Below, one piece after another: positions 16,828 to 58,648 of a DNA stretch of 64,000 nt (position 1 is its first letter; each line of letters opens with the position of its first letter). Under the pieces are notes generated by a model, which had not been told where the DNA came from, ran no database searches, and saw only the letters and a list, made by a program, of their open reading frames with translations. Where the stretch lies: assembly GCA_022820625.1 (NCBI GenBank), contig JAJEFE010000111.1:2319-66318 (forward strand), given 5' to 3'. Source of the stretch: Gammaproteobacteria bacterium. GTDB lineage: Bacteria; Pseudomonadota; Gammaproteobacteria; Steroidobacterales; Rariloculaceae. The translations under genes were made by a program, and so were the position numbers.

Positions 16828-18246
16828 CTACTCGAAAATCGTGAGCGCCTCCGACATGCCCATGTCCTCCTTCCAGGCCTCGATGAGCGCCTGGAATTCC
16901 GTAACGAGTTCGGGATAGTCGTCCACGAGATTCTGTTCTGCCAGGCGATCGACGGTGACGTCGTAGAGCACCATGTCGCCGGTGTCCGCGTACCAGAGGA
17001 ACTGCCAGCGGTGAGTGCGCACCGAGTACCCCTCGGCGCGTTCCCCCATGGGCGTGGTCGTCGAACGCCGGTTGTCGGTATACCCGACGAGATGCGTGCG
17101 CTCCGGCATCGAGCGCCCCTCGATCAACGGCAGCAGGGAGTAACCGGGCAGTCCCTGCGGGATTTCGACGCCCGCGAGGTCCAGAATCGTCGGGAAGATG
17201 TCCATGGAAGAGACCAGGCTTGACGTATTGAACGAGTGGCGCAGGCGGTCCTTCCAATAGAAGACCAGGGGCGAGCGGAAGGACTGGTCGTAGAGCCCGT
17301 TCTTGCCGAGCGGCCCACCGTTGCCGAGCAGGTGATCGGTGGCGACTGTCGAGTCCTCGTGATGCTTGTACTCGACATTGGCGTCCTGTTCCCAGCCGTT
17401 GTCGCTGATGTATACGAAGAGCGTGTCGTCCATGAGCCCGTGGCTCTCGATGTGGTCCAGCAGCCGGCCTACGCCGTCGTCCCACCAGGTCACATTGGAG
17501 TAGTAGAGTTTTGCGGACTCCGAGATGTCCTTGTCCTGGTAGTACTTGCGGTAGGTGTATGGCGCGTCGAACGGCACGTGCGGCAGCGAGGGAGCGAACC
17601 AGATGAAGAACGGCTGTTCCCTGTTGCGGTCGATGAAATCGAATACCGGCTCCATCGTCTCGCGCACCAGATCGTTGCCGGCGGCCCCCATCAGTTCCTC
17701 GAAGAAAGTGTCGCCGCCGTAGGCCGACATGTCCCAGCCTTCGCTCATGCCTTCGGAGAAGTGGCCGTTGCGATAGTTGTTCTCCCACCATTTGCCGCCC
17801 TGCCAACTGACGTAGCCGGCCTCGCCGAGCAGCTTCGGCAGCGTGTCGAATTCGCGCATGGCCGCGGCCTTTTCGACCTGGTCCCAGAGGCCCCTCCGCA
17901 CGCTATCGAACGAGGCGTAGTCGGCGTCTTCGCTTCGCCGCCGTTCGACAATCTCGGTTTCGCGCTGAACGTATTGCACCGGGTGTAGGCCAGTGATCAG
18001 CGTGCGCAGGGACGGGCGGCAATAGGTCGCCGTGACGTGGGCGTGAGAGAATGTCACGCCGCCCGCGGCGAGCGCGTCCATCGAGGGGGTGACGACATTC
18101 TCGTCGCCCATGAATCCGAAATAGGGATAGCCGTGATCGTCACCCACGAGCAATACGATATTGGGTGGTCTCTGGGCGATTGCGGCGCCGCAGGCGAAGA
18201 CAAGCACAACGAGTAAGAGCCGATGGATACGCAGCACGCGGTTCAT
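16828..18246 (-). CDS. Sulfatase (formylglycine-type fold) with non-canonical C-R-P-S-L-R maturation motif
   Basis: PPNIVLLVGDDHGY metal site. The motif ATYCRPSLRTLITG keeps sulfatase spacing but has Leu where the CxPxR Arg is expected. ISDNGW. ATG at 18246 is preceded by GGAGG, 25 nt after the GH13 stop. The TTG at 18291 in the ORF track would overlap the GH13 gene. Confidence 0.85.
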   Translation of the reverse strand: MNRVLRIHRLLLVVLVFACGAAIAQRPPNIVLLVGDDHGYPYFGFMGDENVVTPSMDALAAGGVTFSHAHVTATYCRPSLRTLITGLHPVQYVQRETEIVERRRSEDADYASFDSVRRGLWDQVEKAAAMREFDTLPKLLGEAGYVSWQGGKWWENNYRNGHFSEGMSEGWDMSAYGGDTFFEELMGAAGNDLVRETMEPVFDFIDRNREQPFFIWFAPSLPHVPFDAPYTYRKYYQDKDISESAKLYYSNVTWWDDGVGRLLDHIESHGLMDDTLFVYISDNGWEQDANVEYKHHEDSTVATDHLLGNGGPLGKNGLYDQSFRSPLVFYWKDRLRHSFNTSSLVSSMDIFPTILDLAGVEIPQGLPGYSLLPLIEGRSMPERTHLVGYTDNRRSTTTPMGERAEGYSVRTHRWQFLWYADTGDMVLYDVTVDRLAEQNLVDDYPELVTEFQALIEAWKEDMGMSEALTIFE

Positions 18247-18271
18247 CTCGGACCTCCGAATTCGCGGCGCT

Positions 18272-20986
18272 TTATTCCGGCGCCAGTTCAAGCAGCGCGT
18301 CGTCCAGGATCTTCGGATCGCCGGGCTCGCCGCCGCTGAAAAACCAATCAGCGGGCTCGGACCGGAAGTCGATATAGTCGCCTTCGGCCGTAGCCGACCA
18401 TGTGGTCACGTAGACACGGCTTCCCGTCCAATCGTCGACTCCGAGCGCGTCGCCTTCGTAGAACAGGGTGATGGAGCGGCTGTCCCGATCGGCGCTCACC
18501 CGGGGAGAAACGCCCAGCTTGTCGCCCTGGCGGTTTGCGTCGCTGCCCGATGCGAGATAGGTATAGCTGTCCCAGCCACGGGCGAAGTGCGCAAGATCCC
18601 AATCCATCGATTCGGGCGCGCTGGCGTCGAGCAAGGGCAGCACTGTTGCGCCTTCCCGGTCCGGCAGGTCGAAAAACGTGGTCAGCAGAACATTGTCGAA
18701 ACCGTAGGGCGGCAACCAGGGCGTGGTGATTTCCGCCATGGTCAGGGTAAGTTCGAGGTTGCGTCCGGCGGTTCGCGCGCTCAAGGACTCGATCTCGCGC
18801 TGACGCGCGCTGTCGGGGTGCTGCGGTCTCACATATTGCCCGGTCGGGCCGTAGGCATCGTCCGGATCGTCCGCGACCTCGGCCGACAATACCGCATCCG
18901 CCACTCGAGTCGTGTAGTTGACACGCTCGGACAACCCATCGGATTCCGCCGAGTACACCTGCAGGAAGTGGGACGATTCACCGAGATCGCGAACGGGTAC
19001 TTCGATCCGCCATTCGCCCTGATCGTCCGCGGTGAAATCGGTCGCGCGATCGAAGTTGCCGTTCGGGATCAATTGCAAGGGCGCGTTGTCGCGGCTGACC
19101 CTGCCCGTGAGTTCGAAATCCCCGGTGAAGACGGCGCCTTCGATCCCCGACGAATCCACCACGATGTCAAGGTCCACGGCTGACTCGCCGGACGGCGCCG
19201 TCTCGCCGATGGACCGCAGCACGACAGTCGCCCTCGGCGGCAGCCGCAGACTCAGGCGTCCATCCGCGTCGGTGATTGCGGATTCCGCGGCGGGTTCGGC
19301 GAACAGCGCCTCCAGTCGCTGAAACGGCAGCGCGCCGACTTCGATACGATGGGCGAACGCGGTGTGATTTGCGGTGTTAAGCAAGACGATCACGCTCTCG
19401 CCCTGGTATTCGCGCCGGTAAGCCAGCACACCCGGCCCGGCGGACTCGGACGCCAGCACCTCAAGGCCGCCGCGGACCAGCACGGGATGTTCCGCGCGCA
19501 ACGCGGTCAGCCGCTGAAGGTATCGAAAGTGCTCGGAGTTCTCGTCGAACGACCCTTCGACGTTGCGGTAGCCGCCCGCGAACATTGCCATGCGCGATTC
19601 CGGCAGCGCCTGTTCCGTGCCCTGGTAAACGACGGGGATGCCCGGAATCGTGAACAGCAGCGCCAGCGCCTGGCGGAAAGATGCCGGGTGCCCGGCCGCA
19701 AGGAATCTCGCGGTGTCGTGATTGTCGATGAAGTTCGGAATCGTGAACGGATCCGGGTATAGCTCCATATACCGTTCCAGGCGGTAGCCGAGTGTCGCGG
19801 AAGGCGCGCCCCGGGCCAGGGCCCGGTTGATTTCATGATACAGGGGGTAGCCCAGCATGGAATTCGGGCCCAGCATGCCATCGGTCTCCAGGTACGCAAC
19901 CACCCTGCGTTCCCCTGCGTCGTCGTACGGATCGGACACCGCGGTCGCCTCGCCGAAGGTGAGGAAAAACTCCTTGCCGCGCTCACGGGCATGGGCGTAG
20001 ATGCCGTCGTCGTCGCGCAGGAACCGGTTCCAGAACGGGAACGGAACCAGGGAGACGGTATCCATGCGGAACGCGTCCACTCCCACCTCGTCGATCCAGA
20101 ACTTGTAGATCTCCTTGAACTTGGCGATCACCACGGGGTTTTCGGTGTTGATGTCGCCGACATGCCCGAGCGAGTAGTAGTGCTCCTGCTGGAGGCTGGC
20201 GAAGTCGGTAATCGGCGGGGTCCAGTGGTAGATGTCCGCGGCGTAATGCTCGGGATTGAGCCGGTCGATCTGGTTGAATGGGTATTGCACGGGCGCCGGC
20301 TGGTGGGAGTCCGGCTCCAGCAGGTAGAAACCCGCGGCAGTGTCATCGGGGTCGTATTCGCCTTCGTAGGCGTAGAAATTGCCGACGTGATTGGAGATCG
20401 TGTCCTGGATCAGGTACATCCCGCGGCAGTGCAATTCATGGGACAGGCGCTTGTAGTCGTCGAGCGTACCGTAGTGCGGGTCGACTTCCTGGAAATGCAC
20501 CGGCCAGTAGCCGTGCCAGCCGGTGGCCTGGTACGGCGTGCTCCACCACTGGTTGTAAAAGATCGGCGTAGTCCACACGGCCGTCATGCCGAGCCTGCGC
20601 AGGTAGTCGAGGCGGTCGATCACGCCCTGCAGGTCGCCGCCGCTGAAGTGGCTGGGCTGGCTTGGGTCGTATTCGCCGTAGCCCTGGTCGTTATTGGTTG
20701 GATCGCCGTCGTCGAAGCGGTCGGTCATCAGCATGTAGATGACCTGATCGCGCCAGTCGGGGGATGGCAAGTGCTGCAACTGCCGGTCGCCGGACGCGCA
20801 GGTTCCGGCACGGGCCAGGGCATCGGACGCTTGCGCGATGTTCCCGTCGTTCGGGATCGCGTCGGCGGGTTCCGGCGCCGGCACGCCCGAGCCGCGCTCC
20901 ACTTCGACTTCACCCGGAGAGCACGCCGCCAGTGACAGAAAAACGGTAACGAACAGGGTCTTGCGCATCGTGATCAACAATGACAT
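18272..20986 (-). CDS. GH13 alpha-amylase-family lipoprotein (about 900 aa) with a long C-terminal beta-rich extension
   Basis: Lipobox FLSLAAC. GH13 regions I-IV: YLIQDTISNH, GVDAFRMDTV, FLTFGEA, NFIDNHDTARF. The C-terminal ~350 aa resembles glucodextranase-type C-terminal domains (from memory, unverified). Alternative start at 20968. Confidence 0.85.
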   Translation of the reverse strand: MSLLITMRKTLFVTVFLSLAACSPGEVEVERGSGVPAPEPADAIPNDGNIAQASDALARAGTCASGDRQLQHLPSPDWRDQVIYMLMTDRFDDGDPTNNDQGYGEYDPSQPSHFSGGDLQGVIDRLDYLRRLGMTAVWTTPIFYNQWWSTPYQATGWHGYWPVHFQEVDPHYGTLDDYKRLSHELHCRGMYLIQDTISNHVGNFYAYEGEYDPDDTAAGFYLLEPDSHQPAPVQYPFNQIDRLNPEHYAADIYHWTPPITDFASLQQEHYYSLGHVGDINTENPVVIAKFKEIYKFWIDEVGVDAFRMDTVSLVPFPFWNRFLRDDDGIYAHARERGKEFFLTFGEATAVSDPYDDAGERRVVAYLETDGMLGPNSMLGYPLYHEINRALARGAPSATLGYRLERYMELYPDPFTIPNFIDNHDTARFLAAGHPASFRQALALLFTIPGIPVVYQGTEQALPESRMAMFAGGYRNVEGSFDENSEHFRYLQRLTALRAEHPVLVRGGLEVLASESAGPGVLAYRREYQGESVIVLLNTANHTAFAHRIEVGALPFQRLEALFAEPAAESAITDADGRLSLRLPPRATVVLRSIGETAPSGESAVDLDIVVDSSGIEGAVFTGDFELTGRVSRDNAPLQLIPNGNFDRATDFTADDQGEWRIEVPVRDLGESSHFLQVYSAESDGLSERVNYTTRVADAVLSAEVADDPDDAYGPTGQYVRPQHPDSARQREIESLSARTAGRNLELTLTMAEITTPWLPPYGFDNVLLTTFFDLPDREGATVLPLLDASAPESMDWDLAHFARGWDSYTYLASGSDANRQGDKLGVSPRVSADRDSRSITLFYEGDALGVDDWTGSRVYVTTWSATAEGDYIDFRSEPADWFFSGGEPGDPKILDDALLELAPE

Positions 20987-21017: not shown

Positions 21018-21031
21018 TGAATACGATTGCA
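21018..21031. promoter_or_regulatory. LacI-type operator candidate TGAATACGATTGCA in the GH13 / alpha-glucosidase divergent region
   Basis: CG-centred 14-mer, 12/14 identical to 39053..39066. It lies in the 188-bp divergent intergenic region. Confidence 0.4.
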
Positions 21032-21174: not shown

Positions 21175-22806
<1,632 letters not shown>

Positions 22807-22868: not shown

Positions 22869-23882
22869 TCAGACCGGGCCGCAGGAATCCCGCACGATCA
22901 GCTCGGGCTGGATGAGTTGCGATTCGACGTAGTCCCCCCGGACCAGCCGCAACAGGGTATCCACCATGACCTCCCCGGCCTTGACAGTATTCTGCCGAAC
23001 GGTTGTCAACGCCGGCGACATGTGCGTCGCGGAGGGAATATTGTCGAACCCGACGATCGACACGTCCTCCGGAATGCTCAGGTTTTCCTTCTGAACGGCA
23101 TGGACAGCGCCGAGCGCGGTCAGGTCGCTGCTGCTGAAGATCGCGCTGAAGCCGTTTCCGCGGGAAAAAAGTTCCCGCGCCGCGAGATGGCCGCTGTGCA
23201 TGGATGAGTGGGACGATGCCTGAAGCTCGGGGTCCACACTCAATCCGGCTTGTAGCAACGCGTCGCAGTATCCGCTGTAGCGGTCCTTGAATTCCGGGCA
23301 GTCATCCGAGATGTCGCCGAGAAAGCCGATGCGGGTATGCCCGAGTTCCAGCAGGTACCGGGTCGCGATGTAGCCGCCACGCCGGTTGTCGCAGCCGACG
23401 AAGTGGCCGGGCTGACCGTCGATGACGGGGCCCCAGGTCAGTACATGGGCATTGTCGAGCAGTTCGATCTTACGGATGTAGTCGGTATAGCCGCCGTAGC
23501 CCAGGAGGATGATGCCTTCTGCCTTGTTGCTGTTCTCGTAGTCGGCGATCCAGTTCTTGCTCAATTGCTGGAATGACAGCAGTACATCGTAGTTTCTCGC
23601 TGCCGCCGCTCTTGTGATGCTGGCCAGCATCGACACGAAGAACGGATTGATGTCGGAGTCCATCCCAGACTCCTCGTGCACCAGCATGGCGATGGTGCGG
23701 CTGTGCTGGGAGCGCAGGTTGCTGGCGCTGCGGTCCACCTTGTAATTGTGTTCCCTGGCGATGCGCTGGATTCTGCGGCGGGTCTCGGGATTGACCAGCG
23801 GGCTCTTGCGCAGGGCGCGCGAAACGGTGGACTGGGAGACGCCCGCCAGTTCAGCTATTTCAAGCGAGGTCACCTTGTGCAT
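22869..23882 (-). CDS. LacI-family transcriptional regulator
   Basis: N-terminal HTH VTSLEIAELAGVSQSTVSRALR plus a periplasmic-binding-protein-like sugar-sensor domain. 337 aa. Confidence 0.9.
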   Translation of the reverse strand: MHKVTSLEIAELAGVSQSTVSRALRKSPLVNPETRRRIQRIAREHNYKVDRSASNLRSQHSRTIAMLVHEESGMDSDINPFFVSMLASITRAAAARNYDVLLSFQQLSKNWIADYENSNKAEGIILLGYGGYTDYIRKIELLDNAHVLTWGPVIDGQPGHFVGCDNRRGGYIATRYLLELGHTRIGFLGDISDDCPEFKDRYSGYCDALLQAGLSVDPELQASSHSSMHSGHLAARELFSRGNGFSAIFSSSDLTALGAVHAVQKENLSIPEDVSIVGFDNIPSATHMSPALTTVRQNTVKAGEVMVDTLLRLVRGDYVESQLIQPELIVRDSCGPV

Positions 23883-23964: not shown

Positions 23965-25563
23965 TTACTCACTGACCAGCATGCCGGTCAGCGTCGGAAC
24001 CTGCTGTACTACCCCCCCGGTTTGGCCGATGTCGAGGTCAAGGCTCGCCTCGCTGAACTGCAACCTGAAGGTGACTACTTGCGGGGTCTCGGTATAGGCA
24101 AGGCGAAATGTGAGTTCATCGGTGCCGACCCAGGCCCCGGCAGCGGCCATGCGGTAACCGTCCGGCTGAGTTTCGCCCAGTAACGATCCGGTGCCCGGTA
24201 GCAGGTCAACGCCAGGAAAAAGGCCTGTGCGGCCAGCGGTCCAGGTTCCGGAGCCGACAGCGATCTCGTGGGCGCCGGTCTGCGTCGTGAAGATGGCCAT
24301 GGTCCGACCGCCCTGGTTGCGCAGGGTCAGCGCGTCGATGCCGAACTCGTTGTCCTCGAATTGCCAGGCGTGCCCCAGCCATTTCCGGCCTTCCTCTCCG
24401 ACCTGGTCGCCGGCCGGCATACGGATCGACAGGTTGTTCAATTGCTCGTGAAGGCGCTCGACTTCAGCCGGATTCTCTCGTAGCGGCTCCCCTTGCATGG
24501 CGGGCAACAAGCGGTCCCAGACGATACTCATGATGCGCCCCATGTCCGGCGTACCGCTGGTAATGGCGACAACGGCGTTCTGCTCGGGGAGGACGAGGGC
24601 GAACTGGCCGGCGGCGCCGTCGCCGCGGTAGCCGTGACGACTGCGCCAGAACTGGTAGCCGTAACCCTGGTCCCAATCGTTGTCGGGATCGCTTCCGCTT
24701 GAGGTCTGCCGGGTGGTCGCCTGAGCCACCCAGTCAGCGGAAAGCAGTTGCCGGCGTTCCCACTCGCCCTCTTGCAGATAGAGTTGCGCGAAGCGGGCGA
24801 TTGACTCCGTTGTCACGCTGAGCCCGAATCCGCCGTGCGCGATGCCCTGGGCGTCATCGCTCCAGGTCGCATCGACGATTTCCAGCGGGTCCAGCAACCG
24901 TGGACGCAGAAATTCCAGCAGATTCTCCCCGGTGATCGTCTGGAGAATTGCCGACAACATGTACGTTGCGGGCGTGTTGTATACGAAGAGGGTACCTGGC
25001 TTGTGGGCCACGGGAAGTTGCAGAAAAGCTTGCGGGAGCGGCGATGCCGAGTCGAATGAGAACGCGCTTAGGTCGTCGCCGTGATGGCCGGTGGACATGG
25101 ACAACAGATCGCGGATGCGCATGGCCTCGAGACGCCAGTCCGGTTCGTCCGGCACCGCATCGGGGAAGAACGATACGACCCTGTCGTCGAGACTTAACCG
25201 TCCCTCGTCGATCGCGATGCCTATGGCGGTCGATGTGAAACTTTTGCTCAGTGAGAGGAGCGTGTGGATGAATTCGGGGCGGTAGGGGTCCCACCAGCCC
25301 TCGGCCACGACGTGACCGTGCCGCAAGACCATCAGGCTGTGAATTTCCTCGATTTCGGTGTCGAGGGCGGTAACGAAATCGGCCACCGCGCCGGAGGCAA
25401 TGCCCTGTTGCTCAGGTGTGCTGCGGGGCAGTTCGGCCGGTGTGGAGACTTGGCCTGTGAGAACCCACAACACGAGGCAGGCGCTCGCTGTCGCCCAGGG
25501 GTGGCGGGTGGCGCTGATCATGATGCGCACCAGTCTACCGGAACGGAATAATCTGCACGACAT
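23965..25563 (-). CDS. Serine hydrolase, beta-lactamase/transpeptidase fold (esterase-like) with a C-terminal extra domain
   Basis: S-x-x-K motif in LLSLSKSFTSTAIGIAIDEG. Secretion signal. An additional C-terminal domain of about 130 aa. Alternative start at 25521. Confidence 0.8.
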   Translation of the reverse strand: MSCRLFRSGRLVRIMISATRHPWATASACLVLWVLTGQVSTPAELPRSTPEQQGIASGAVADFVTALDTEIEEIHSLMVLRHGHVVAEGWWDPYRPEFIHTLLSLSKSFTSTAIGIAIDEGRLSLDDRVVSFFPDAVPDEPDWRLEAMRIRDLLSMSTGHHGDDLSAFSFDSASPLPQAFLQLPVAHKPGTLFVYNTPATYMLSAILQTITGENLLEFLRPRLLDPLEIVDATWSDDAQGIAHGGFGLSVTTESIARFAQLYLQEGEWERRQLLSADWVAQATTRQTSSGSDPDNDWDQGYGYQFWRSRHGYRGDGAAGQFALVLPEQNAVVAITSGTPDMGRIMSIVWDRLLPAMQGEPLRENPAEVERLHEQLNNLSIRMPAGDQVGEEGRKWLGHAWQFEDNEFGIDALTLRNQGGRTMAIFTTQTGAHEIAVGSGTWTAGRTGLFPGVDLLPGTGSLLGETQPDGYRMAAAGAWVGTDELTFRLAYTETPQVVTFRLQFSEASLDLDIGQTGGVVQQVPTLTGMLVSE

Positions 25564-27871: not shown

Positions 27872-27963
27872 GAGGCCGGTGAGCCATGCCGGACAACGCG
27901 CCCGCCGGACACTCATCGGACAAGCATTCGCGTACGGCCCGCATGCCGGTATAGTGCTGGCGC

Positions 27964-29472: not shown

Positions 29473-29506
29473 ATGAGAGGGCGAGTCCTTCCATTGGCGA
29501 TTTTCT

Positions 29507-29551: not shown

Positions 29552-29624
29552 TTTGCGACCAAAAAATGCGGACAAACTCCCTTATGGCCGGTAGACGCCA
29601 CTTATCCACGAAAATGAGCAACTG

Positions 29625-44584: not shown

Positions 44585-44656
44585 CCGGGTCGGAAGCGGA
44601 AGGATACGAACGCAGGTCGGCGCCGCAATAGTCCCGGCAAACGGGTGGTTTCGGGA

Positions 44657-48762: not shown

Positions 48763-48955
48763 GGTAGCCGCTCCCCCAGAAAAACCTCACCCGATGGATG
48801 ACAAAACCACTTGCCGCTCAGGCAGTCAAGCGGCTCATGTCGGACGGCAGGCGCCCGCTCACACGAAGCACCTTCCAGCATACGGCTTTGCCGGACGGTT
48901 CCGTGGGTGTCCCCTCACTCAAGGCAACTTCGCGCCCCGTACGGTCCAAGCCGCG

Positions 48956-50843: not shown

Positions 50844-52133
50844 ATGTTGAATCTTCGTTCCCTGTCCGTGGCCTTCGCGGGTCTGGCGCTCTCGACTCTT
50901 TCGGGCCAGGCTGCTGCCGCGGTCAGCATTCCCGACCCCGACGCCGTGGATGCCGTCATCGATGGCTTCGTGGATGACGGCTATTACCCCTTCATTTATG
51001 CGCGACTGGAAGATCGGGACGGCAATGTCGTCTACGAGCACGGCGCGGTCAATCGCGAACTCCTGCCGGACGCCGAAATCGATGGCCAGACGTGGATCCG
51101 CATCTGGTCCATGAGCAAGATCGTCACCATCTCCACGGTTCTTGACCTGGTGGAGGACGGCGTTCTGGGCCTCGAGGATCCGGTCATCGACTACATTCCC
51201 GAATTTGAGAACATGCAGGTTGCGGTGACGGCCGATGGCAGGGATCTCAGCCAGGTGGAACGGGACCAACGGGCATCGGCCTGCCCATTTGAACGGGTGC
51301 CCATGGATACGGTCATGACGGTGCGTCACCTGATCGATCACGAGGCCGGGTTCTACTACGCCACGACCAATTTTCCGTGCCTGGATGCCGCGTTGAACGA
51401 GCAGAATGTTGCTGTGGCGGCCGATACCCGGGACTTCATCGATCGGCTGGCGGGGCTGCCGCTTGTTCAGCAGCCGGGCGCGCGGTACCACTACGGGACC
51501 AACACGACCGTGCTTGGCATGGTGGCGGAGCGTGCGACGAACAAGAGTCTCAAGCAGTTGGTGGAGGAGCGGCTGACCGGGCCGTTGGGCATCCACGGAC
51601 TGCAGTACGGCCTCCCGGCGGGCGTGGAACTGTTGCCGAAAGTCAGCGGCCGCGATAACGAATTGCGGGTTGCGCATCCCGGGGAGCTGGACATCTTCGG
51701 CGCGGACGTGCCGGGCTACGACCCCGGGCATCCTCTCTACCTGGGCGGCGAGGGCATGCTGGCGACCGCCGACGGCTACGCCGATTTCCTGCGGATGCTG
51801 CTGAATCATGGGACGCTGAACGGGCAACGCTTCCTCGAGACGGCCACCGTGGAGAACATCTACGCGCCGCATACTCAACTGGACAACCCCGAAGGACACA
51901 ATGGAATGAATCTCTGGGTTCCCGGAGAACCGATGCGGGAGCGCGGGGAGGGCGAGGCAGGACTCTGGATCGGCGGCGGATACGAGGGCACGCACTTCTG
52001 GGTGGACCCCAAACGTGAATTCGTCGGCGTGATCATGTCCCAGATGTATGCGGTTCCCCAGGGCGGCGGGGGCAGGGACGGGGCGATTCGAGCCGAGCTC
52101 TACCGGCAGTTCTGGGCGGAAGAAGCCAATTGA
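50844..52133 (+). CDS. Serine hydrolase, beta-lactamase fold (esterase-like), secreted
   Basis: AAGGAG before the ATG at 50844. Signal MLNLRSLSVAFAGLALSTLSGQAAAA. S-x-x-K in IWSMSKIVTISTVLDL. Confidence 0.8.
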   Translation: MLNLRSLSVAFAGLALSTLSGQAAAAVSIPDPDAVDAVIDGFVDDGYYPFIYARLEDRDGNVVYEHGAVNRELLPDAEIDGQTWIRIWSMSKIVTISTVLDLVEDGVLGLEDPVIDYIPEFENMQVAVTADGRDLSQVERDQRASACPFERVPMDTVMTVRHLIDHEAGFYYATTNFPCLDAALNEQNVAVAADTRDFIDRLAGLPLVQQPGARYHYGTNTTVLGMVAERATNKSLKQLVEERLTGPLGIHGLQYGLPAGVELLPKVSGRDNELRVAHPGELDIFGADVPGYDPGHPLYLGGEGMLATADGYADFLRMLLNHGTLNGQRFLETATVENIYAPHTQLDNPEGHNGMNLWVPGEPMRERGEGEAGLWIGGGYEGTHFWVDPKREFVGVIMSQMYAVPQGGGGRDGAIRAELYRQFWAEEAN

Positions 52134-53518
52134 ACTCCAGGTTCATTATCGCGATCAGCTGCATCGCGACCATTGGCGGCTTTCTCTTCGGCTTCGACAG
52201 CGGAGTCATTAACGGCACCGTAGACGGGCTGCAGATCGCGTTCCAGTCCGACAGTGTCGGCACGGGGTTCAACGTCGCCTCAATGCTGCTCGGGTGCGCG
52301 GCGGGCGCGTTTTTCGCCGGACGTCTGGCGGACGTAATCGGGCGCCGCAACCTGCTCATCGTTGCCTCGATCTTCTTTTTGGTCAGCGCCTGGGGTTCGG
52401 GCATCGCGTCCAGTTCCGCCGAATTCGTGTTCTTCCGCGTGCTCGGCGGGATGGCGGTCGGAGCCGCCAGCGTTATCGCACCGGCCTATATCGGTGAGGT
52501 CGCACCGGCCCACTACCGCGGACGCCTGATCACCGTACAGCAGATCGCCATCATCACGGGGCTCTTCAGCGCCTTTGTCAGCAACTTCCTTCTGGCAGGA
52601 TTCGCAGGCGCATCCACTTCCGAGTTGTGGCTGGGATTCGAGGCCTGGCGCTGGATGTTCTGGATCGAAATCGCACCGGCGGTGCTGTTCTTCCTCGGAT
52701 TGCTGCTGATCCCGGAAAGCCCGCGGTATCTCGTGATTCGCGGCAGGACGCAGACCGCACGTGCCGTTCTGACCCGGCTCTACGGTCGGGAGCGCGGTGA
52801 GGAGAAGCTCACGGAAATCGACGAATCCCTGGCCGAGGATCACCATCGCCCGAGATTCTCGGACCTGATTGACGGCACCACGGGAAGAGTTCGAAAGCTC
52901 GTCTGGGTCGGAATCGGGCTGGCGACGTTCCAACAACTCGTCGGCATCAATGTGGTCTTCTATTACGGCGCGGTGCTCTGGCAGTCGGTCGGGTTTTCCG
53001 AGAGCGACGCGCTTCTGATCAACGTCATCTCGGGCGCCGTCAGCATCGGCGCCTGCCTGATCACTGTCAGCCTGATCGACCGGATCGGCAGAAAACCGCT
53101 GCTGTGGATCGGTTCGGTCGGCATGGCCTTCACGCTTTCCGCCATGGCGCTGGCGTTCGCAAGCGCCACCCTGGACGAGCAGGGCGCGCTGCAGTTGTCG
53201 GATACCATGGGAACCGTCGCGCTGGTAGCCGCAAACTTGTATGTATTCTTTTTCAACGCATCGTGGGGACCGGTAATGTGGGTCATGCTGGGCGAGATGT
53301 TCCCAAACCAGATTCGCGGTTCCGGCCTCGCCATCAGCGGTCTTGCGCAATGGGGATCGAATTTCGGGATCACCATGACGTTCCCCATTCTGCTCGTCAG
53401 CATTGGACTGATGGGTGCGTATTCGCTGTATGCGCTGGCGGCGGTCATTTCGGTTTACTTTGTAGTAAAGCACGTTCACGAAACGCGCGGGCTTGAGCTG
53501 GAGGAGATGCAGGGGTAG
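52130..53518 (+). CDS. MFS sugar porter-family transporter (glucose/galactose/xylose:H+ symporter type)
   Basis: GGFLFGFDSGVINGT, GRLADVIGRR, PESPRYL, and C-terminal HETRG (PETKG-type) motifs. TTG start in a TTGA overlap with the upstream stop. Confidence 0.85.
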   Translation: MNSRFIIAISCIATIGGFLFGFDSGVINGTVDGLQIAFQSDSVGTGFNVASMLLGCAAGAFFAGRLADVIGRRNLLIVASIFFLVSAWGSGIASSSAEFVFFRVLGGMAVGAASVIAPAYIGEVAPAHYRGRLITVQQIAIITGLFSAFVSNFLLAGFAGASTSELWLGFEAWRWMFWIEIAPAVLFFLGLLLIPESPRYLVIRGRTQTARAVLTRLYGRERGEEKLTEIDESLAEDHHRPRFSDLIDGTTGRVRKLVWVGIGLATFQQLVGINVVFYYGAVLWQSVGFSESDALLINVISGAVSIGACLITVSLIDRIGRKPLLWIGSVGMAFTLSAMALAFASATLDEQGALQLSDTMGTVALVAANLYVFFFNASWGPVMWVMLGEMFPNQIRGSGLAISGLAQWGSNFGITMTFPILLVSIGLMGAYSLYALAAVISVYFVVKHVHETRGLELEEMQG

Positions 53519-53523: not shown

Positions 53524-55374
53524 ATGAGAACAATGGCGAAGCGATCAAGTGTCGCTCTGGCAATGTGGCTGGGGTGCGCGGCTCCTCACGTGTTGGCCGC
53601 CGGGATCGAACGTGTCGAACCACCGTTCTGGTGGGTCGGATTCGAGAATCCGCAACTTCAATTGCTTGTCTACGGCGAGGATATGGGTACGATGTCGCCG
53701 GCCGTTGACTGGCCGGGCGTCACCGTGGGGGAGGTCACGACGACGGGCAATCCGAACTACCTGTTCGTGCACCTGCAGATCGACGTCGATGCCGAAGCGG
53801 GTCAGTTCGACATCGTTTTCAGCGACGGCGAAGAAACCATTGCCTGGCCGTATCGACTGGACCGGCGCAACCCGGACCCCGACCACACCCGCGGATTTTC
53901 CTCCGCCGACGCGATCTACCTGATCACGCCGGACCGATTCGCCAATGGCGACCCGAGCAACGATGAGATCGAGGGTCTCGGAGATATTCTGGACAGGAGT
54001 CTGCCCAGAGCCCGGCACGGAGGCGACGTGAGGGGCATTATCGATCGGCTCGACTACATTGCCGATCTTGGTTTCACCGCCGTGTGGCTGAATCCCGTGC
54101 TCGAGAATGCGATGCCGGAATTTTCCTACCACGGCTATTCGACCACGGATTTCTACCGGGTGGACCCGCGCAAGGGCAGCAATGAAGACCTGGCGGAACT
54201 GGCCCGGACCGGACGCGAAAAGGGCGTCGGACTGATCATGGACATGATAGTCAATCACAGCGGACTGAATCACTGGTGGATGGAGGACCCGCCGATGGAC
54301 GACTGGGTGCACCAGTGGGACGGCTACGTCGGAACCACCCACGCCAAGTCGCTCAGCGTCGACCCCTACGGCGCCGAAGTCGACAGGCGCGAGTTCTACG
54401 ATGGCTGGTTCGTGCCGTCCATGCCCGATCTCAACCAGGACAATCCCCTGATGTCGGAGTACCTCATCCAGAACGCCATCTGGTGGATCGAGTACCTGGG
54501 CCTGGCCGGCGTGCGCATGGATACCTATCCGTACTCCGGGGCGGAGTTCATGGCGGAGTGGACGCGACGGGTGATGGAGGAATTTCCGGACTTCAACGTG
54601 GTGGGCGAGGAGTGGACCGAGAATCCCCTGATCGTCGCCTACTGGCAGGGCGGCGCGGAAAAGCACGACGGCTACCGTTCCTGGTTGCGCAGCGTGATGG
54701 ATTTTCCGCTCAACTCCGTGCTCGCCTCCTCACTGGTGGCCGAGGAACGGTTTTCTCAAGGCTTTCGATCCCTCTACTCGATGCTGGCGAACGATGTCCT
54801 CTACCCGGACCCCAATGAGCTGGTTATCTTCGGGGACAACCACGACATGAGGCGCGTGTACTCGCAGCTTGGGGAGGACTTTGCACTGTTCGAACTGGCC
54901 ATGGCGTACCTCGCAACCATGCGCGGTGCTCCGCAGATCTACTACGGAACCGAGATTCTGGCTGTCAGTGGCGGCGATCACGGAGTTATTCGCAGTGATT
55001 TTCCGGGAGGCTGGGAGGGCGATGCGGTCGACGCGGTCTCCGGAAGCGGCCTGACGGATGATCAGCTCAGAGCTCAGGAACTGGTGAAGACGCTCTTCAA
55101 CTGGCGCAAGGATTCTCAGGCCGTGCATCGTGGCGGACTCACCCACTTCCTGCCGAAGGACAGTGTCTACGTCTATTTCCGCTACCTGGACGACGAGAAG
55201 GTCATGGTTATCCTCAACAAGAATACCGAGCCCTATTCGCTTGCGATGGAGCGCTTTGGGGAAGTTCTCGGCGACGCAGGCAGCGGCGTGGACGTCATTC
55301 GCGGCGGTGCGTACGATCTGACTTCGGCAATCGGGTTGGAGCCGCGCACGGCGTTGGTATTGCAGGTTGAGTAA
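53524..55374 (+). CDS. GH13 cyclomaltodextrinase/neopullulanase-like alpha-amylase with an N-terminal beta-sandwich domain
   Basis: Signal peptide. VEPPFWWVGF N-domain. ITPDRFANGDPSND, GFTAVWLNPVLEN, GLIMDMIVNHSG, GLAGVRMDTYPY, VVGEEWT, IFGDNHDMRR. Confidence 0.85.
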   Translation: MRTMAKRSSVALAMWLGCAAPHVLAAGIERVEPPFWWVGFENPQLQLLVYGEDMGTMSPAVDWPGVTVGEVTTTGNPNYLFVHLQIDVDAEAGQFDIVFSDGEETIAWPYRLDRRNPDPDHTRGFSSADAIYLITPDRFANGDPSNDEIEGLGDILDRSLPRARHGGDVRGIIDRLDYIADLGFTAVWLNPVLENAMPEFSYHGYSTTDFYRVDPRKGSNEDLAELARTGREKGVGLIMDMIVNHSGLNHWWMEDPPMDDWVHQWDGYVGTTHAKSLSVDPYGAEVDRREFYDGWFVPSMPDLNQDNPLMSEYLIQNAIWWIEYLGLAGVRMDTYPYSGAEFMAEWTRRVMEEFPDFNVVGEEWTENPLIVAYWQGGAEKHDGYRSWLRSVMDFPLNSVLASSLVAEERFSQGFRSLYSMLANDVLYPDPNELVIFGDNHDMRRVYSQLGEDFALFELAMAYLATMRGAPQIYYGTEILAVSGGDHGVIRSDFPGGWEGDAVDAVSGSGLTDDQLRAQELVKTLFNWRKDSQAVHRGGLTHFLPKDSVYVYFRYLDDEKVMVILNKNTEPYSLAMERFGEVLGDAGSGVDVIRGGAYDLTSAIGLEPRTALVLQVE

Positions 55375-55492
55375 AGCCGGGGACCCACCGCCGGCGCGGC
55401 GCATGGCCGCGAACAGCCGGTCGCTGTTGGCCTGGCAGGTTGACTATAGAGGGGAACCATCCGCAGAAAGCCCCAGGTAAAGAGGGAGAATA

Positions 55493-57058
55493 ATGAAGAC
55501 TGTCGCTTATTCGGTGTTTGGTCTGGTTGTGCTTTTCGGCACGGAATCGATTGCATGCGAATTGGCCGTTTTCGCACAGCCGGCTTACGACTCGCCCCAC
55601 GGCGTCACGCTTGCCGGCGCGGAACGGATCGACGACGGCGCCGGTTACTGCCAGGTGGAAGGCATGATCGCCAACTCCGTCGACCGGCAGAGCCGCATCC
55701 GGTTCCGGCTGCGCCTGCCGGATGAAGCCGACTGGAACGGCCGCTTCCTGGTGTTGGGCAACGGCGGTACGGCCGGTACCTTTCAGGGCGAAAATCGGGC
55801 ACAGGTCGCCCTGCAACTCGGTTACGCTACCGGACAGACCGATACGGGGCATACCCGGGACGGGCCCGAAGATTGGCTGATACGGGAATCGGAGGACGGT
55901 TCCGCGCTACCCAATACCGCCGCCATGGAAGATTTCGGGCATCGGTCCATCCACCTCACCTCCGTGGTCGGCAGGCAACTGGCGGACGCCTACTATGCCT
56001 CGGCGCCGGAGCATTCCTACTACTTCGGCTGCTCCACCGGCGGGCGCCAGGGGCTCAAGGCCATGCAGCGCTATCCCGGGGATTTCGACGGAATTGTTGC
56101 CGGTGCCCCGGTTTTTTCACTGACCCGCCTGAACATGTCACAGGTATGGATGGCGAAGGAGGCAGCGCGTCTGGCGTCCGAGGATCAGCCGTTGTCCGCA
56201 GCTCAACTGGAGCTCATCCATGATGGCGCACTTACGGCCTGCGATGCGAACGACGGGATCGCGGACCGCCTCATCGACGATCCTCGCCAGTGCGGATTCG
56301 ATCCCGGCGTGCTGCAATGCAGCGGATCGGAGACGCCGCCCATGTGCCTGACGGAGCGTCAGGTCGATTTCGTCCGCATGGTCTACGATGGGCCCGTCAC
56401 CGACGCGGGCGAACGGCTCTACCCGGGCCGCGTCGCGGGGGGCGAGGGCAACGGCAGGCAGGGCTGGCAAGCCTTTCTTGGGGCCGCCTGCCACAATGCC
56501 GAGGCGACGGGGCGCTGCGATCTGGTTGCCCGTGCCTGGTTTCAGGAGCCCGGCATGAACATGATGGCCGAGTTTGACATCAATGATCCGGCCGACGTCC
56601 TGGCGGCGGATACGTCCTTCTATTCGGCCGTCACCCGGGCGGACAATCCGGACGTGACGCCATTCGTGCAGCGAGGCGGCAAGGCGATTCTCTACCACGG
56701 CTGGAGCGACACCAACGTCACGCCCACTCCCACCGTGGAACTGTACGAGGCGATGCAGGACACCGTCTCCCGGAAACGCGGCGCCGATGACTTTCGCGAT
56801 CATGTGCGCTTGTTCATGGCGCCGGGGATGGCGCACTGTGGCGGGGGAGAAGGGCCCAACGACTATGTGGCTTCGGTCCTGGAGGCTATCGACGCCTGGG
56901 TGACCGAGGGTGACGCGCCGGATGCGATCGTGGCGACCCACGAGGAGCGGGGCATGTCCCGTCCCTGGTGTCCGTATCCCCACGTCGCTCGCCTGAGTGA
57001 TCCGAATCTGGACCCCAGCGAGGCCGACAGTTTCCAGTGCGTCGCGCCGCCCGAGTAG
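55493..57058 (+). CDS. Tannase/feruloyl-esterase-family hydrolase
   Basis: FGCSTGGRQGLKAMQRYPGDFDGIVAGAP (nucleophile elbow G-C-S-x-G-G). Conserved Cys pairs. Signal peptide. Confidence 0.8.
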   Translation: MKTVAYSVFGLVVLFGTESIACELAVFAQPAYDSPHGVTLAGAERIDDGAGYCQVEGMIANSVDRQSRIRFRLRLPDEADWNGRFLVLGNGGTAGTFQGENRAQVALQLGYATGQTDTGHTRDGPEDWLIRESEDGSALPNTAAMEDFGHRSIHLTSVVGRQLADAYYASAPEHSYYFGCSTGGRQGLKAMQRYPGDFDGIVAGAPVFSLTRLNMSQVWMAKEAARLASEDQPLSAAQLELIHDGALTACDANDGIADRLIDDPRQCGFDPGVLQCSGSETPPMCLTERQVDFVRMVYDGPVTDAGERLYPGRVAGGEGNGRQGWQAFLGAACHNAEATGRCDLVARAWFQEPGMNMMAEFDINDPADVLAADTSFYSAVTRADNPDVTPFVQRGGKAILYHGWSDTNVTPTPTVELYEAMQDTVSRKRGADDFRDHVRLFMAPGMAHCGGGEGPNDYVASVLEAIDAWVTEGDAPDAIVATHEERGMSRPWCPYPHVARLSDPNLDPSEADSFQCVAPPE

Positions 57059-57100
57059 CCGTCGGTGGATTTACGTTAGACAGGCCGATCGGGAGCACGG

Positions 57101-58648
57101 GTGAACGGCGTCAGAGCTAGGATCAAACACAAATCGGTACGCGATCGGGATGGCCCACGGTCAGGGCTGGCCGCTTTCGCGGCCTTTTTGCTATTGCAGA
57201 CATTCGCCGGTGGGGCAGGGGCGCAGGATTCGGCCCCTCAAGAATCCCCCAACGTACTGCTCATCATTGTCGATGACCTTCGCCCGCAACTGGGCGCCTA
57301 CGGTTTCGACGTCATGCGCACGCCGAACATCGATCGTCTCGCCGAGGAGGGATTGCTGTTCCGTCGAGCGTACGCCCAGTGGCCCGTATGTGGTCCGTCG
57401 CGGGCCAGCCTGCTGAGCGGACTGCGGCCCGACACTACCGGCATCTACAACAACGGTCGGCGGCTGGATTCTGCGGACACCGAGATCGTTTCCCTGCCGG
57501 CGCACTTCAGGCGCAACGGCTACCGGACGCTTTCCGTCGGAAAGGTCTACCACTCTCGGAACGACGATCTGGGCGCCTGGAGCGAACAACCCCTCAATAC
57601 CGCGCCGAACGACGACAATTGGCAAGGGTATGGCTCTCCCGAGACCCATGAGTTGAGGCTTCGCCTGTGGGAGGAAGCGCTGGCGGAGGATCCGAATGCG
57701 CTGTTCCACCAATTCAACGCAGGCGCCGTGGAAAGAGCGGACCTGCCCGACAGCGAGTATCGCGACGGCAAGATCGCCGACATGGCCGTGGAAGTGCTGC
57801 GCGAAAACGCAGGCCAACCGTTCTTCGCCGCAGTGGGATTCGTCAAGCCGCACTTGCCGTTCGCCGCGCCGAGCCGGTATTGGGATCTGTACGATCGCGC
57901 CGACCTGCAGCCGATGGCCGGTTCGACCCGGCCTGATGGCACGACGGAGATTCCCTACATCTACAGTGAACTGGAGTCCTATCGGGGCATTGGGTCGGAC
58001 GACGAACTGACCGGGGAGCAGGTGCTGGAGCTGATTCACGGATATTTCGCCGCGGTCAGCTTCGTCGACGCCCAGGTCGGCAAGCTGCTGGACGAACTGG
58101 ACCGTCTGGACATCAGGGACAACACCATCGTCGCCCTGGTGGGCGACCACGGATTCCATCTGGGCGAGCAGGGCATCTGGGCGAAGCACAGCCTGTTCGA
58201 ACTGTCGTCGCAGACGCCGCTGATTGTCAGCGCTCCCGGTCAGGCGACTGCCGGCGCCTCCACGAACGCGCTGGTGGAGCTGGTCGACATCTACCCCAGC
58301 CTGGTGGAACTGGCCGGGCTCGATCCGTCGCCTCGTTTCGACGGTGAGAGTTTCGTGCCGCTGATGGACGACCCGGACACGCCCTTCAAGGATGCGGCGC
58401 TGAGCCAGTATCGGCATTTCATGGAGCCGTATCGGGAAATCATGGGATACAGCATCCGGACGGATCGGTACCGGTTTTCGCTCTGGCGGGATAACGCGCG
58501 CCAGGGCGCAGCATTTGCAAGGGAGTTGTACGACCTGGGCGTCGATGGCAGCGAGTCGGTCAACCTTGCCCACGATCCGGCGTACGAGGTCACAGTACAG
58601 GACTTGACGAATCGAATCGACGCTTTACGCGGAGGCAACACGCCCTGA
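57101..58648 (+). CDS. Sulfatase (iduronate-2-sulfatase-like, canonical CGPSR)
   Basis: PNVLLIIVDDLRPQLGAYG, QWPVCGPSRASLLSGLRPDTTG, GKVYH, LVGDHGFHLGE. GTG start. Confidence 0.85.
   Translation: MNGVRARIKHKSVRDRDGPRSGLAAFAAFLLLQTFAGGAGAQDSAPQESPNVLLIIVDDLRPQLGAYGFDVMRTPNIDRLAEEGLLFRRAYAQWPVCGPSRASLLSGLRPDTTGIYNNGRRLDSADTEIVSLPAHFRRNGYRTLSVGKVYHSRNDDLGAWSEQPLNTAPNDDNWQGYGSPETHELRLRLWEEALAEDPNALFHQFNAGAVERADLPDSEYRDGKIADMAVEVLRENAGQPFFAAVGFVKPHLPFAAPSRYWDLYDRADLQPMAGSTRPDGTTEIPYIYSELESYRGIGSDDELTGEQVLELIHGYFAAVSFVDAQVGKLLDELDRLDIRDNTIVALVGDHGFHLGEQGIWAKHSLFELSSQTPLIVSAPGQATAGASTNALVELVDIYPSLVELAGLDPSPRFDGESFVPLMDDPDTPFKDAALSQYRHFMEPYREIMGYSIRTDRYRFSLWRDNARQGAAFARELYDLGVDGSESVNLAHDPAYEVTVQDLTNRIDALRGGNTP

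Follow-up and report, generated by a model that had tools for sequence, protein, structure and literature searches.

The window, a 64,000-nucleotide stretch of contig JAJEFE010000111.1 (GenBank assembly GCA_022820625.1; Gammaproteobacteria, Rariloculaceae), carries an island of alpha-glucan genes interleaved with sulfatases and esterases, located at a variable chromosomal site of a sponge-associated gammaproteobacterium. On balance we read the island as composite: a conserved alpha-glucan heart, controlled by a LacI-family regulator and possessing decoration-removing enzymes of its own, is joined to a canonical maltodextrin locus, and other sulfatases have accreted to them. The heart appears to be an alpha-glucan regulon of a variant kind, with enzymes for the removal of sulfate, acyl, methyl and pentosyl groups. 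From the conserved link of the sulfatase-like gene sulf1, the esterases blac2 and SASA, a glycoside hydrolase family 43 (GH43) enzyme, a cytochrome P450 and PhyH-type dioxygenases with GH13 genes, we reasonably infer a substrate that is sulfated, acylated, probably methylated and alpha-glucosidic.

Gene classes were called by Pfam scans, supplemented with NCBIfam and PDB sequence searches (Table 1). The scans bore out the alpha-glucan inventory of a first-pass annotation of this DNA (four GH13 enzymes, a GH97, two major facilitator superfamily (MFS) transporters, a TonB-dependent receptor (TBDR), a tryptophan-halogenase homologue and a LacI regulator), and also found every extra gene that it had listed, namely seven sulfatases, the GH43, the SASA-type esterase, a tannase and two beta-lactamase-fold hydrolases, where it had placed them. 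Its 1-nt overlap between sulf2 and sulf3 holds. The GH13–sulfatase string that it counted twice is tight in one case, the GH13L_b stop overlapping sulf6 by 1 nt, and looser in the other, as sulf1 starts at a Shine–Dalgarno-supported ATG at 18246, 25 nt downstream of GH13L_a and without overlap; a further overlap, of 4 nt, joins blac2 to the sugar porter. The label "formylglycine-type" that it gave to all seven sulfatases fits sulf2–sulf7, which have the canonical C-x-P-x-R motif, but not sulf1, which has C-R-P-S-L. The system also reaches left of the annotated start at 16828, as far as 8398, and so takes in PhyH-1, PhyH-2, two permeases and a MalK-like ATPase of an ATP-binding cassette (ABC) importer, the P450 and a solute-binding protein (SBP).

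Results

Conserved neighbourhood of sulf1 and GH13L

The window contains two surface amylase lipoproteins of about 900 residues, GH13L_a and GH13L_b, which are 55% identical. GH13L_a matches a PDB alpha-amylase (9X8F) at E 1.6e-159, and its catalytic D309/E346/D424 are invariant. Assignment of GH13L to GH13_37 (AmyP) was dropped: the top solved relative is the unnamed alpha-amylase 9X8F, and AmyP lies outside the 60 best matches.

From GTDB species representatives we retrieved 80 GH13L loci, which were annotated by comparison with the window proteins (individual loci are given below by L numbers). A sulf1 orthologue (38–82% identity) lies beside GH13L in 23 of the 80 loci, and 57 loci lack one. 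Order and strand vary: we found GH13L followed by sulf1; the order GH13_o16, P450, sulf1, GH13L, blac2; and opposite-strand arrangements. The carriers comprise several Pseudomonadales lineages, metagenome-assembled genomes (MAGs) labelled Lysobacterales, Caulobacterales, Calditrichia and Bacteroidota, and the cultured Pseudomaricurvus alkylphenolicus KCTC 32386, whose locus (L032) has the P450, TBDR, GH13L and sulf1.

The 23 sulf1-type loci are enriched in the cytoplasmic alpha-glucosidase GH13_o16 (18/23) and in the ABC genes (15–17/23): the permease and ATPase genes are conserved with sulf1 in 15–16 of them, and the SBP gene is present in 17, compared with 5/57 of the other loci. The P450 occurs in 14/23 versus 2/57, orthologues of PhyH-1 (67–82% identity) in 9/23 versus 0/57, and blac2 in 7/23 versus 0/57. 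The halogenase homologue is depleted, with 1/23 against 14/57, the 57 loci being of the classical TBDR/halogenase/MFS type. This contrast therefore divides the GH13L loci into two kinds, and the window holds one of each. LacI orthologues (74–88%) adjoin GH13_o16 in L005, L010, L011, L030 and L171.

A reverse search, in which metagenome contigs were scanned from the sulfatase side, gave the same association. Where the contig was long enough, homologues of sulf1 with 53% identity or more were without exception accompanied by GH13_o16, P450 and ABC genes. In the wider sulf1 clade (37–48% identity), 14 of 37 loci have GH13, GH97, GH43, blac2 or P450 neighbours, versus 0 of 43 for more distant sulfatases of the same scan, which sit among other sulfatases (Fisher p = 4e-6). 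The clade stands beside GH13 amylases, blac2, GH43 and a CYP236-like P450 in genomes of 35 to 66% GC.

Recurrences in distant genomes and gene fusions

Independent recurrences were found in genomes of 35–47% GC and in other phyla. They take the form of tight same-strand strings: GH13L, blac2, sulf1-like, GH127-like and GH43 in L068; GH43, a beta-lactamase-fold gene, GH13 and a sulfatase in L166; blac2, GH43 and sulf1-like in L103; and GH127-like, GH13 and sulf1-like in L091. A Marinimicrobia alpha-glucan locus includes the GH43. Two pairs stand alone, a sulf1-like/blac2 pair in Balneola and a P450/sulf1-like pair among housekeeping genes in L117. The GH43 lies within GH13 strings in L068, L103, L166, L167, L171 and L173. 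GH43 and blac2 are unusually conserved across phyla (60–68% identity; blac2 60–65%) and often share contigs.

Some of these genes are fused. Protein P0061 consists of a GH13L (54% identity) followed by a blac2-type esterase domain (49% identity), a 713-aa open reading frame (ORF) of L012 combines blac2 with SASA, and P0083 and P0093 join a PF00756 esterase to GH13L.

Both beta-lactamase-fold hydrolases of the window keep the S-x-x-K motif. In blac2 it reads S-M-S-K, at residue 89; together with the PF00144 fold and the nearest structures, EstU1 (4IVI) and Est-Y29, this points to a family-VIII carboxylesterase. The other hydrolase, blac1, has an orthologue in 0 of 160 loci; its top NCBIfam match is a 3-succinylated cholic acid synthase model, at 296 bits, far under the cut-off of 800. 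The nearest structures to the GH43 are a beta-xylosidase (5Z5D) and the arabinofuranosidases BoGH43A/B. Signal peptides are present in sulf1, blac2, SASA and GH43.

Two side observations concern the gene strings. In two low-GC loci (L068:3488-9663 and L166:3975-9927), the GH13/GH43/esterase/sulfatase string is immediately preceded by Planctomycete-type PSCyt1/PSCyt2/PSD1 (DUF1549/DUF1553) and DUF1501 genes. In L164, L165 and L171 a string of GH43, TBDR, FG-GAP/ASPIC and DUF6851/VCPO-like genes recurs under a LacI regulator, and in L171 it runs on into blac2 and the porter.

A shared LacI-type operator

The 14-bp palindrome at 39053 (TGAATACGTATGCA) has a near twin at 21018. The motif was first derived from these two sites of the window, and its value therefore lies in independent loci. 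Its degenerate form, TGMAWWCGWWTKCA, has 76 copies in the 2.69 Mb of fetched loci, against fewer than one expected from base frequencies, and nearly all of them are upstream of GH13L, the TBDR, the MFS gene, an ABC operon headed by the SBP gene, or PhyH. Where sulf1 is the first gene of its own unit, in L005, L031, L082 and L171, a copy stands immediately before it; L171 has another ahead of the operon whose last genes are blac2 and the porter. The operator is strongly conserved in L039–L066, from Rheinheimera, Ferrimonas, Shewanella and others, where the TBDR is typically preceded by a pair of copies at distances of about 410 and about 123 nt; a single further copy lies before the MFS gene or, at about 30 nt, before GH13L.

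Scanned with a matrix made from these copies, the window yields no more than three good sites, at 39053 (28 bits), 21018 (23 bits) and 9375 (13 bits). Their positions place what we call module A (the PhyH genes, ABC genes, P450, SBP, GH13L_a–sulf1 and GH13_o16), along with the TBDR, in one putative LacI regulon. No site above 9 bits was found in the window ahead of the GH97…sulf3 unit, sulf4, sulf5, GH13L_b–sulf6, SASA, blac2 and its following genes, or tannase–sulf7.

The island as a mosaic in close relatives

The window proteins have their nearest relatives in MAGs of uncultured Pseudomonadales; many of these are bins from sponges, or chromosomes that carry the label Ca. Rariloculaceae or Pseudohongiella. 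L171 (OZ244860.1) shares the flanks of the window (FadB 80%, M19 84%, AhpC 86%) with only a 16-kb core in between. This core consists of sulf1 (80%), GH13_o16, LacI, GH43, a different TBDR, FG-GAP/VCPO-like genes, blac2 and the porter; it is without the cyclomaltodextrinase-type gene GH13_cmd, the tannase and sulf7, and its GH13L_a copy is 2.5 Mb away.

Other relatives hold other parts. L162 (GH43 96% identical) reads TBDR, TBDR, GH97, halogenase, MFS, GH43, sulf2, sulf3, sulf4, TBDR, sulf5, with two TBDRs in place of blac1 and no module A at left; its GH97–halogenase–MFS string (85–93%) is also found in L173. L168 has sulf2–4, TBDR, VapCB, blac2, porter, GH13_cmd, sulf7 and AhpC, and is without sulf5, sulf6, GH13L_b, SASA and tannase. 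L173 keeps LacI, GH13_cmd, GH97, halogenase, MFS and GH43 with no sulfatase, and L164 keeps GH43 with LacI and TBDR only. Genes sulf2–sulf4 are present in L162, L163 and L168 (82–93%) and absent after GH43 in L173, L171 and L164; by this pattern they look like a lineage-specific insertion. Module C (sulf5, sulf6, GH13L_b and SASA) is absent in L168 and kept only in the close relatives L014 and L024 (86–93%), where its genes lie 0.4–0.6 Mb from the GH13L_a-type copy, as seen in two Rariloculaceae chromosomes (OZ241971.1, OZ242031.1). The VapBC pair, which in the window separates the TBDR from sulf5, is followed directly by blac2 and the porter in L168, and hence marks a rearrangement junction. 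From the same comparisons, GH13_cmd, tannase and sulf7 are probably stepwise additions.

The sulfatases are dense here, with 7 in 42 kb versus 0 in the 22-kb flanks, and relatives L002, L004, L007, L164 and L171–L173 have 0–1 per ~22 kb. In sponge symbionts, arylsulfatases rank among the functions with the strongest enrichment (PMC5649159), which fits local accretion. Six of the seven (sulf2–sulf7) look like recent additions at this site; we take them, the tannase and blac1 to be lineage-specific accretions, the substrates of which need not be alpha-glucans.

These data bring up the best-surviving rival to the composite reading, a pure mosaic, in which every sulfatase and esterase is cargo without relation to the rest, gathered at a recombination hot spot of a sulfatase-rich sponge symbiont, and their adjacency to GH13 genes has no functional meaning. 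The varying composition of the island among close relatives (L162, L168, L171, L164, L173, L014, L024), the VapBC pair at a junction, the arylsulfatase enrichment in sponge symbionts and the lack of conservation beyond close relatives for six of the seven sulfatases all accord with it. For sulf1, blac2, SASA, GH43, P450 and PhyH, however, the cross-phylum recurrences, the fusions, the 14/37 versus 0/43 contrast and the shared operator speak against chance, and even the compact L171 core still keeps sulf1, blac2 and GH43. We therefore consider the pure mosaic unlikely, and already contradicted for the core genes.

The first-pass annotation had offered both views, and each survives in part. Accretion of modules at one site, its alternative, is also true, as the 16-kb core between the same flanks in L171 illustrates. 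Its proposed target, a sulfated and O-acylated glycan with alpha-glucosidic linkages, remains reasonable for sulf1, blac2, SASA and GH43, which recur with GH13 genes across phyla and are in some cases fused, but does not extend to the whole island, since sulf2–7 and the tannase are missing in relatives and have no operator in the window. The synteny comparison that it suggested likewise gives a split answer: sulf1 travels with the alpha-glucan genes (23/80 loci), and the other six sulfatases do so only in close relatives. The annotation had named, as evidence against its proposal, relatives in which the alpha-glucan core has no sulfatase at these junctions; such relatives exist for six of the seven sulfatases and the tannase but not for sulf1.

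sulf1 and the other six sulfatases

All seven sulfatases belong to PF00884, and each has the fold, the N-terminal DD/ED metal site with its Asp pair, and a Cys motif. They are mutually only 24–34% identical and hence represent seven different sulfatase lineages, not tandem duplicates. The C/S-x-P/A-x-R signature is present in sulf2–7 and absent from sulf1, the motif of which is C-R-P-S-L-R; we therefore filed sulf1 as sulfatase-like. The C-R-P-S-L motif is invariant throughout the sulf1 clade, with L95 in place of the Arg, and so are the remaining catalytic residues (Lys/His for sulfate, Asp/Asn for metal), D51, D52, K167, H238, D297, N298 and K330; their equivalence to ARSA residues rests on an alignment with 6BIA and on established knowledge. 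The maturases FGE (formylglycine-generating enzyme) and anSME (anaerobic sulfatase-maturating enzyme) recognise the Arg of C-x-P-x-R. A C-R-P-S/A-L motif without the canonical arginine (TALCRPSLMTLATG) also marks a large group of more distant sulfatases in sulfatase-rich islands (metagenome contigs L121–L161); the variant is therefore widespread, not peculiar to sulf1.

The altered motif suggests another reading, in which sulf1 is a phosphatase or phosphodiesterase of the alkaline phosphatase superfamily that clears amylase-blocking phosphate esters from starch or glycogen fragments, so that the alpha-glucan link is real and no sulfate is involved. C3/C6 phosphate monoesters do occur on starch and glycogen. 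The clade has lost the Arg and kept the metal and nucleophile positions, the PDB search returned no solved relative of sulf1 nearer than E 1e-29, and the matches include phosphonate-monoester and multifunctional alkaline-phosphatase-superfamily hydrolases. On the other side, the sulfate-binding Lys and His of S1 enzymes are kept (K167, H238 and K330), the same C-R-P-S-L motif is found in sulfatases within sulfatase-rich islands, and a phospho-glucan would leave the co-conserved P450, esterases and GH43 unexplained. A phosphatase is thus distinctly unlikely in our view.

Among the other six, sulf2 had no match in the PDB search at E 1e-45. The nearest structures to sulf3 are GALNS/ARSA-like, those to sulf4 are S1_8-like, and those to sulf6 are 7AN1 and 7ANA. 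Since these are not glucan sulfatases, they tell against a third reading, that the whole 42-kb island with its seven sulfatases and four esterases is one system for one heavily sulfated, acylated alpha-glucosidic glycan such as a sponge "acidic glycogen". The tight same-strand strings with 1–4 nt overlaps (MFS–GH43–sulf2–sulf3, GH13L_b–sulf6, blac2–porter) are what such a system would show, L162 has sulf2–4 in a string headed by an operator-preceded TBDR, the window sequence was found in sponge metagenomes, and the reference list of PMC3039475 names an acidic glycogen (from Aplysina fulva) and a sulfated glucose/fucose polymer for sponges. Yet for sulf2–4, for sulf5/6, for sulf7 and for the tannase there is at least one relative that keeps the alpha-glucan genes and lacks the unit at that junction, no operator precedes their units in the window, and the two GH13L modules lie 0.4–0.6 Mb apart in OZ241971.1 and OZ242031.1. 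One system for the entire island therefore seems decidedly improbable.

The P450 and PhyH genes

The P450 of module A is 42% identical to the structure of P450ZoGa (6G5O) and has the heme-thiolate loop GAGPHLCLG, as expected of the P450 fold and its Cys ligand. P450ZoGa (CYP236A) demethylates 6-O-methyl-D-galactose in porphyran use, and its E62, R66 and Q70 hydrogen-bond the sugar; V58, E62, R66, Q70, F73 and L267 are strictly conserved in CYP236A, and membership of a subfamily requires at least 55% identity (PMC6292453, PMC10033563). The window P450 keeps E62, R66, Q70, L267 and the heme Cys, and has V58 replaced by P and F73 by I. Judged by these two substitutions and the 42% identity, it is a related family member, not a CYP236A.

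The PhyH genes flank the third operator of the window. A minus-strand ORF at 9360–10391, first taken for a conserved unknown gene, proved to be a shadow ORF of PhyH-2: the plus frame is 77–82% conserved, compared with 54–63% for the minus frame, and it is the plus frame that has the Pfam match.

Further features of the window

The remaining features are listed in Table 1. Base composition is even (about 63% GC overall, 0.60–0.65 throughout), with no module standing out as foreign. The TBDR is 33–44% identical to TBDRs that adjoin the halogenase or GH13L in Ferrimonas, Rheinheimera and Shewanella, and the halogenase homologue is 50–55% identical to those beside TBDR and GH13L in Rheinheimera and Ferrimonas. 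Compared with its positional orthologues in L162 and L168, the TBDR (39142–41925) is 71–72% identical and the neighbouring genes 82–96%, which suggests faster divergence or allele replacement. The gap between sulf3 and sulf4 (36234–37216) holds about 1 kb of extra DNA with a 167-aa ORF (unk167), which starts like a signal peptide and matches no family; in L162 and L168 the two sulfatase genes abut or overlap. Two short ORFs lie at 7135–8209, the second of which resembles FAD amine-oxidase-type enzymes over their N-terminal Rossmann part alone; this may be a disrupted gene. Promoter and terminator scans over 8–64 kb gave counts at or below the shuffled expectation.

Table 1. Genes and operator sites of the island, with positions in the window
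Feature	Position	Strand	Evidence or context
PhyH-1, Fe(II)/2-oxoglutarate dioxygenase family	8398..9234	-	PF05721 E 2.6e-20; divergent from PhyH-2
Weak LacI-type operator TGAATACGTATGTT	9375..9388		PhyH-1/PhyH-2 divergent region; position weight matrix 13.3 bits, third best in window; exact sites at same position in L003, L021
PhyH-2, second Fe/2OG dioxygenase; heads ABC operon	9447..10355	+	PF05721 E 1.6e-41
ABC sugar importer unit	10207..14159	+	BPD_transp_1 and ABC_tran/OB_MalK domains
ABC permeases	about 10336-11811 and 11808-13091	+	BPD_transp_1
MalK-like ATPase	13095-14159	+	ABC_tran/OB_MalK
Cytochrome P450, P450ZoGa (CYP236A) homologue	14165..15319	+	PDB 6G5O E 1.4e-95
SBP of ABC importer	15472..16794	+	SBP_bac_1 E 3.5e-32
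sulf1, periplasmic S1-type sulfatase (sulfatase-like), C-R-P-S-L clade	16828..18246	-	PF00884 E 4e-48
GH13L_a, surface lipoprotein alpha-amylase with Glucodextran_C-like tail	18272..20986	-	PF00128 E 7e-53; lipobox LAAC
LacI operator TGAATACGATTGCA	21018..21031		32 nt upstream of GH13L_a, divergent region with GH13_o16; 23 bits; same site ~30 nt upstream of GH13L in >15 loci
GH13_o16, cytoplasmic AglA/oligo-1,6-glucosidase-like alpha-glucosidase	21175..22806	+	PF00128 E 7e-122; NCBIfam matches
LacI-family regulator	22869..23882	-	LacI and Peripla_BP domains
blac1, beta-lactamase-fold hydrolase (S-L-S-K)	23965..25563	-	PF00144 E 3e-38
GH97, Trp-halogenase homologue, SLC45/GPH-like MFS	25793..31124	+	canonical maltodextrin-locus genes
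GH97	25793-27871	+	
Trp-halogenase homologue	27964-29472		PF04820 E 1.5e-191
GH43 with GH43_C2, periplasmic pentosidase	31147..32868	+	PF04616 E 6.5e-79
sulf2, sulf3, ~1 kb with unk167, sulf4	32872..38995	+	canonical CxPxR sulfatases
Tandem LacI operators CGCATACGCATGCA and TGAATACGTATGCA	39035..39066		76 nt upstream of TBDR; 28.1 bits, window's best site (39053); same tandem in L162, L163
TBDR, maltodextrin-locus type	39142..41925	+	plug and barrel domains
CCDC90-like small gene (74 aa), VapC (PIN), VapB (RHH)	42034..42923	-	VapBC pair itself 42274-42923
Module C: sulf5 (+), sulf6 (-), GH13L_b (-), SASA (-)	43220..50449		
GH13L_b, ~900-aa lipoprotein with Glucodextran_C tail	46066-48762	-	
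blac2 (family-VIII carboxylesterase type, S-M-S-K), then XylE-like sugar porter	50844..53518	+	PF00144
GH13_cmd (cyclomaltodextrinase-type GH13), tannase/feruloyl esterase, sulf7	53524..58648	+	
GH13_cmd	53524-55374	+	

Discussion

From the gene identities, associations, fusions and shared operator we infer the following route for the heart of the composite island. GH13L_a, which has a lipobox, would cut a decorated alpha-glucan at the cell surface, and the TBDR would carry the fragments into the periplasm. There, sulf1 would strip sulfate, blac2 and SASA would remove O-acyl groups and the GH43 a pentosyl branch, and the GH97 and cyclomaltodextrinase would trim the chain. The products would be imported by the Agl-like ABC importer and the MFS transporters, and split in the cytoplasm by GH13_o16, where the CYP236-like P450, and perhaps the PhyH dioxygenases, would remove O-methyl or other ether groups. 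LacI would control the core. The substrate is probably not sponge-specific, because the core is also present in free-living marine bacteria.

Several known systems resemble parts of the window. The closest are the maltodextrin carbohydrate-utilization (CUT) loci of Alteromonadales, Xanthomonas and Caulobacter, which the first-pass annotation had named, and the comparison is upheld: the TBDR, the halogenase homologue, the 900-aa GH13 lipoprotein, the SLC45-like MFS, the GH97, a cytoplasmic GH13 and LacI are all shared, and the same palindromic operator lies upstream of TBDR, GH13L and MFS in Rheinheimera, Ferrimonas and Shewanella. The CUT loci differ in having no sulfatase, P450, PhyH or esterase (sulf1 and blac2 0/57), and the window adds a second system, of ABC type, with these genes, and six more sulfatases. 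A test for a polysaccharide utilization locus (PUL) of the Bacteroidota type failed, in that no SusD-like gene is present in the window; the TBDR stands alone, as it does in proteobacterial CUT loci.

The rhizobial AglEFGAK system combines alpha-glucoside ABC uptake with an alpha-glucosidase. Both this system and the window group an SBP, two permeases, a MalK-like ATPase and a GH13 alpha-glucosidase into a single unit. An NCBIfam model derived from Agrobacterium gives GH13_o16 776 bits, but the scores are under the curated cut-offs. The window operon differs by its P450 and PhyH dioxygenase and by its pairing with a surface amylase and a sulfatase.

Among loci for sulfated glycans, the porphyran and agar loci of Zobellia and Formosa, which contain CYP236A (PMC6292453, PMC10033563), likewise place a homologue of the sugar-demethylating P450 beside S1 sulfatases, but the window has no agarase or porphyranase families and no ferredoxin or reductase nearby, and its conserved glycosidases are all GH13, GH97 and GH43. 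The PULs for carrageenan, ulvan, fucoidan and mucin have, like the window, periplasmic S1 sulfatases interleaved with glycoside hydrolases and an outer-membrane importer; they differ in that the hydrolases of the window are alpha-glucan enzymes, and the literature that we searched held no locus for a sulfated alpha-glucan. A possible substrate analogue, as opposed to a locus, is the mycobacterial 6-O-methylglucose lipopolysaccharide, an O-methylated alpha-glucan with base-labile acyl groups (PMC6016469). It fits the combination of amylase, esterases and O-demethylase, but it is unsulfated, unpentosylated and intracellular in Actinobacteria, and nothing links it to these marine loci.

A number of observations weigh against the route outlined above. 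The literature searched held no natural alpha-glucan of characterised structure that bears sulfate, methyl and acyl groups at once, although pieces of such chemistry are known separately, as in uncharacterised sulfated glucans from seaweeds. By its sequence, sulf1 may not be a formylglycine sulfatase at all, the Arg of C-x-P-x-R being absent; it could mature in a different way or be the phosphatase acting on phospho-glucans considered above. As the first-pass annotation had stated, none of the ORFs scanned across the 64-kb window has an FGE or anSME domain, and no leftover gap is big enough for one. The P450 has no reductase next to it and no Fer2-like ORF in the window as redox partner. Genes blac2, SASA and GH43 are without a recognisable operator of their own in the window. 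The set is modular, not obligate, as sulf1 occurs without the P450 in L005, L059 and L082, and GH13L without sulf1 in L002 and L013. Many of the cross-phylum loci are MAGs or unbinned contigs, with taxonomic names as labelled. Finally, one sponge metatranscriptome (X20) yielded few contigs on the region, all under 200 nt, too sparse to show co-expression.

The last alternative, that the conserved set serves a small decorated alpha-glucoside (for instance a disaccharide bearing sulfate, acyl or methyl groups, the head group of a glycolipid, or the glycoside of a natural product), we regard as very improbable: the large amylase is missing from the L171 core and the Balneola and L117 pairs, GH13_o16 and the ABC genes resemble the rhizobial Agl system, the porter is a monosaccharide transporter and the 60–68% identity of blac2 and GH43 across phyla would suit one invariant small substrate, but blac2 and other esterases are fused to the 900-aa surface amylase, which argues for action on a polymer, and TBDR and GH13L belong to the same regulon.

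We return to the composite reading, with a decorated alpha-glucan as the substrate of its heart. A bolder extension, which we put forward only tentatively, is that marine bacteria of several phyla share a toolkit (the C-R-P-S-L sulfatase, the family-VIII esterase, the GH43 and the CYP236-like O-demethylase) for an abundant class of decorated alpha-glucans that are sulfated, O-acylated, O-methylated and possibly pentosylated, with sulf1 as the founder of a sulfatase subfamily that is specific for glucans and does not need the C-x-P-x-R arginine for maturation or activity.

The first-pass annotation knew of no described catabolic locus for a sulfated or O-acylated alpha-glucan, and the literature searched here offered none; matches to "sulfated glucan" were chemical derivatives or uncharacterised algal fractions. 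Nor did that literature describe an alpha-glucan regulon with a dedicated set of sulfatase, esterase, demethylase and GH43. The TGMAWWCGWWTKCA operator can serve at once as a marker by which the regulons of alpha-glucan loci are recognised. The idea of a decorated alpha-glucan is directly testable, owing to the cultured carrier Pseudomaricurvus alkylphenolicus KCTC 32386, and in sponge symbiosis it gives a testable connection with "acidic glycogen" from the host or from microbes. It would further imply a natural glycan that is new, a new sulfatase specificity with an unusual active-site motif, and a second substrate class for carbohydrate-demethylating P450s. Among marine glycans, alpha-glucans (starch, glycogen and bacterial storage glucans) usually count as the simplest and most labile, and their loci serve to mark "easy" carbon. 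That alpha-glucan regulons contain a conserved decoration-removing set, co-regulated and in part fused, suggests that some of this pool bears chemical decorations for which special enzymes are needed, which would alter how such loci are read in metagenomes.

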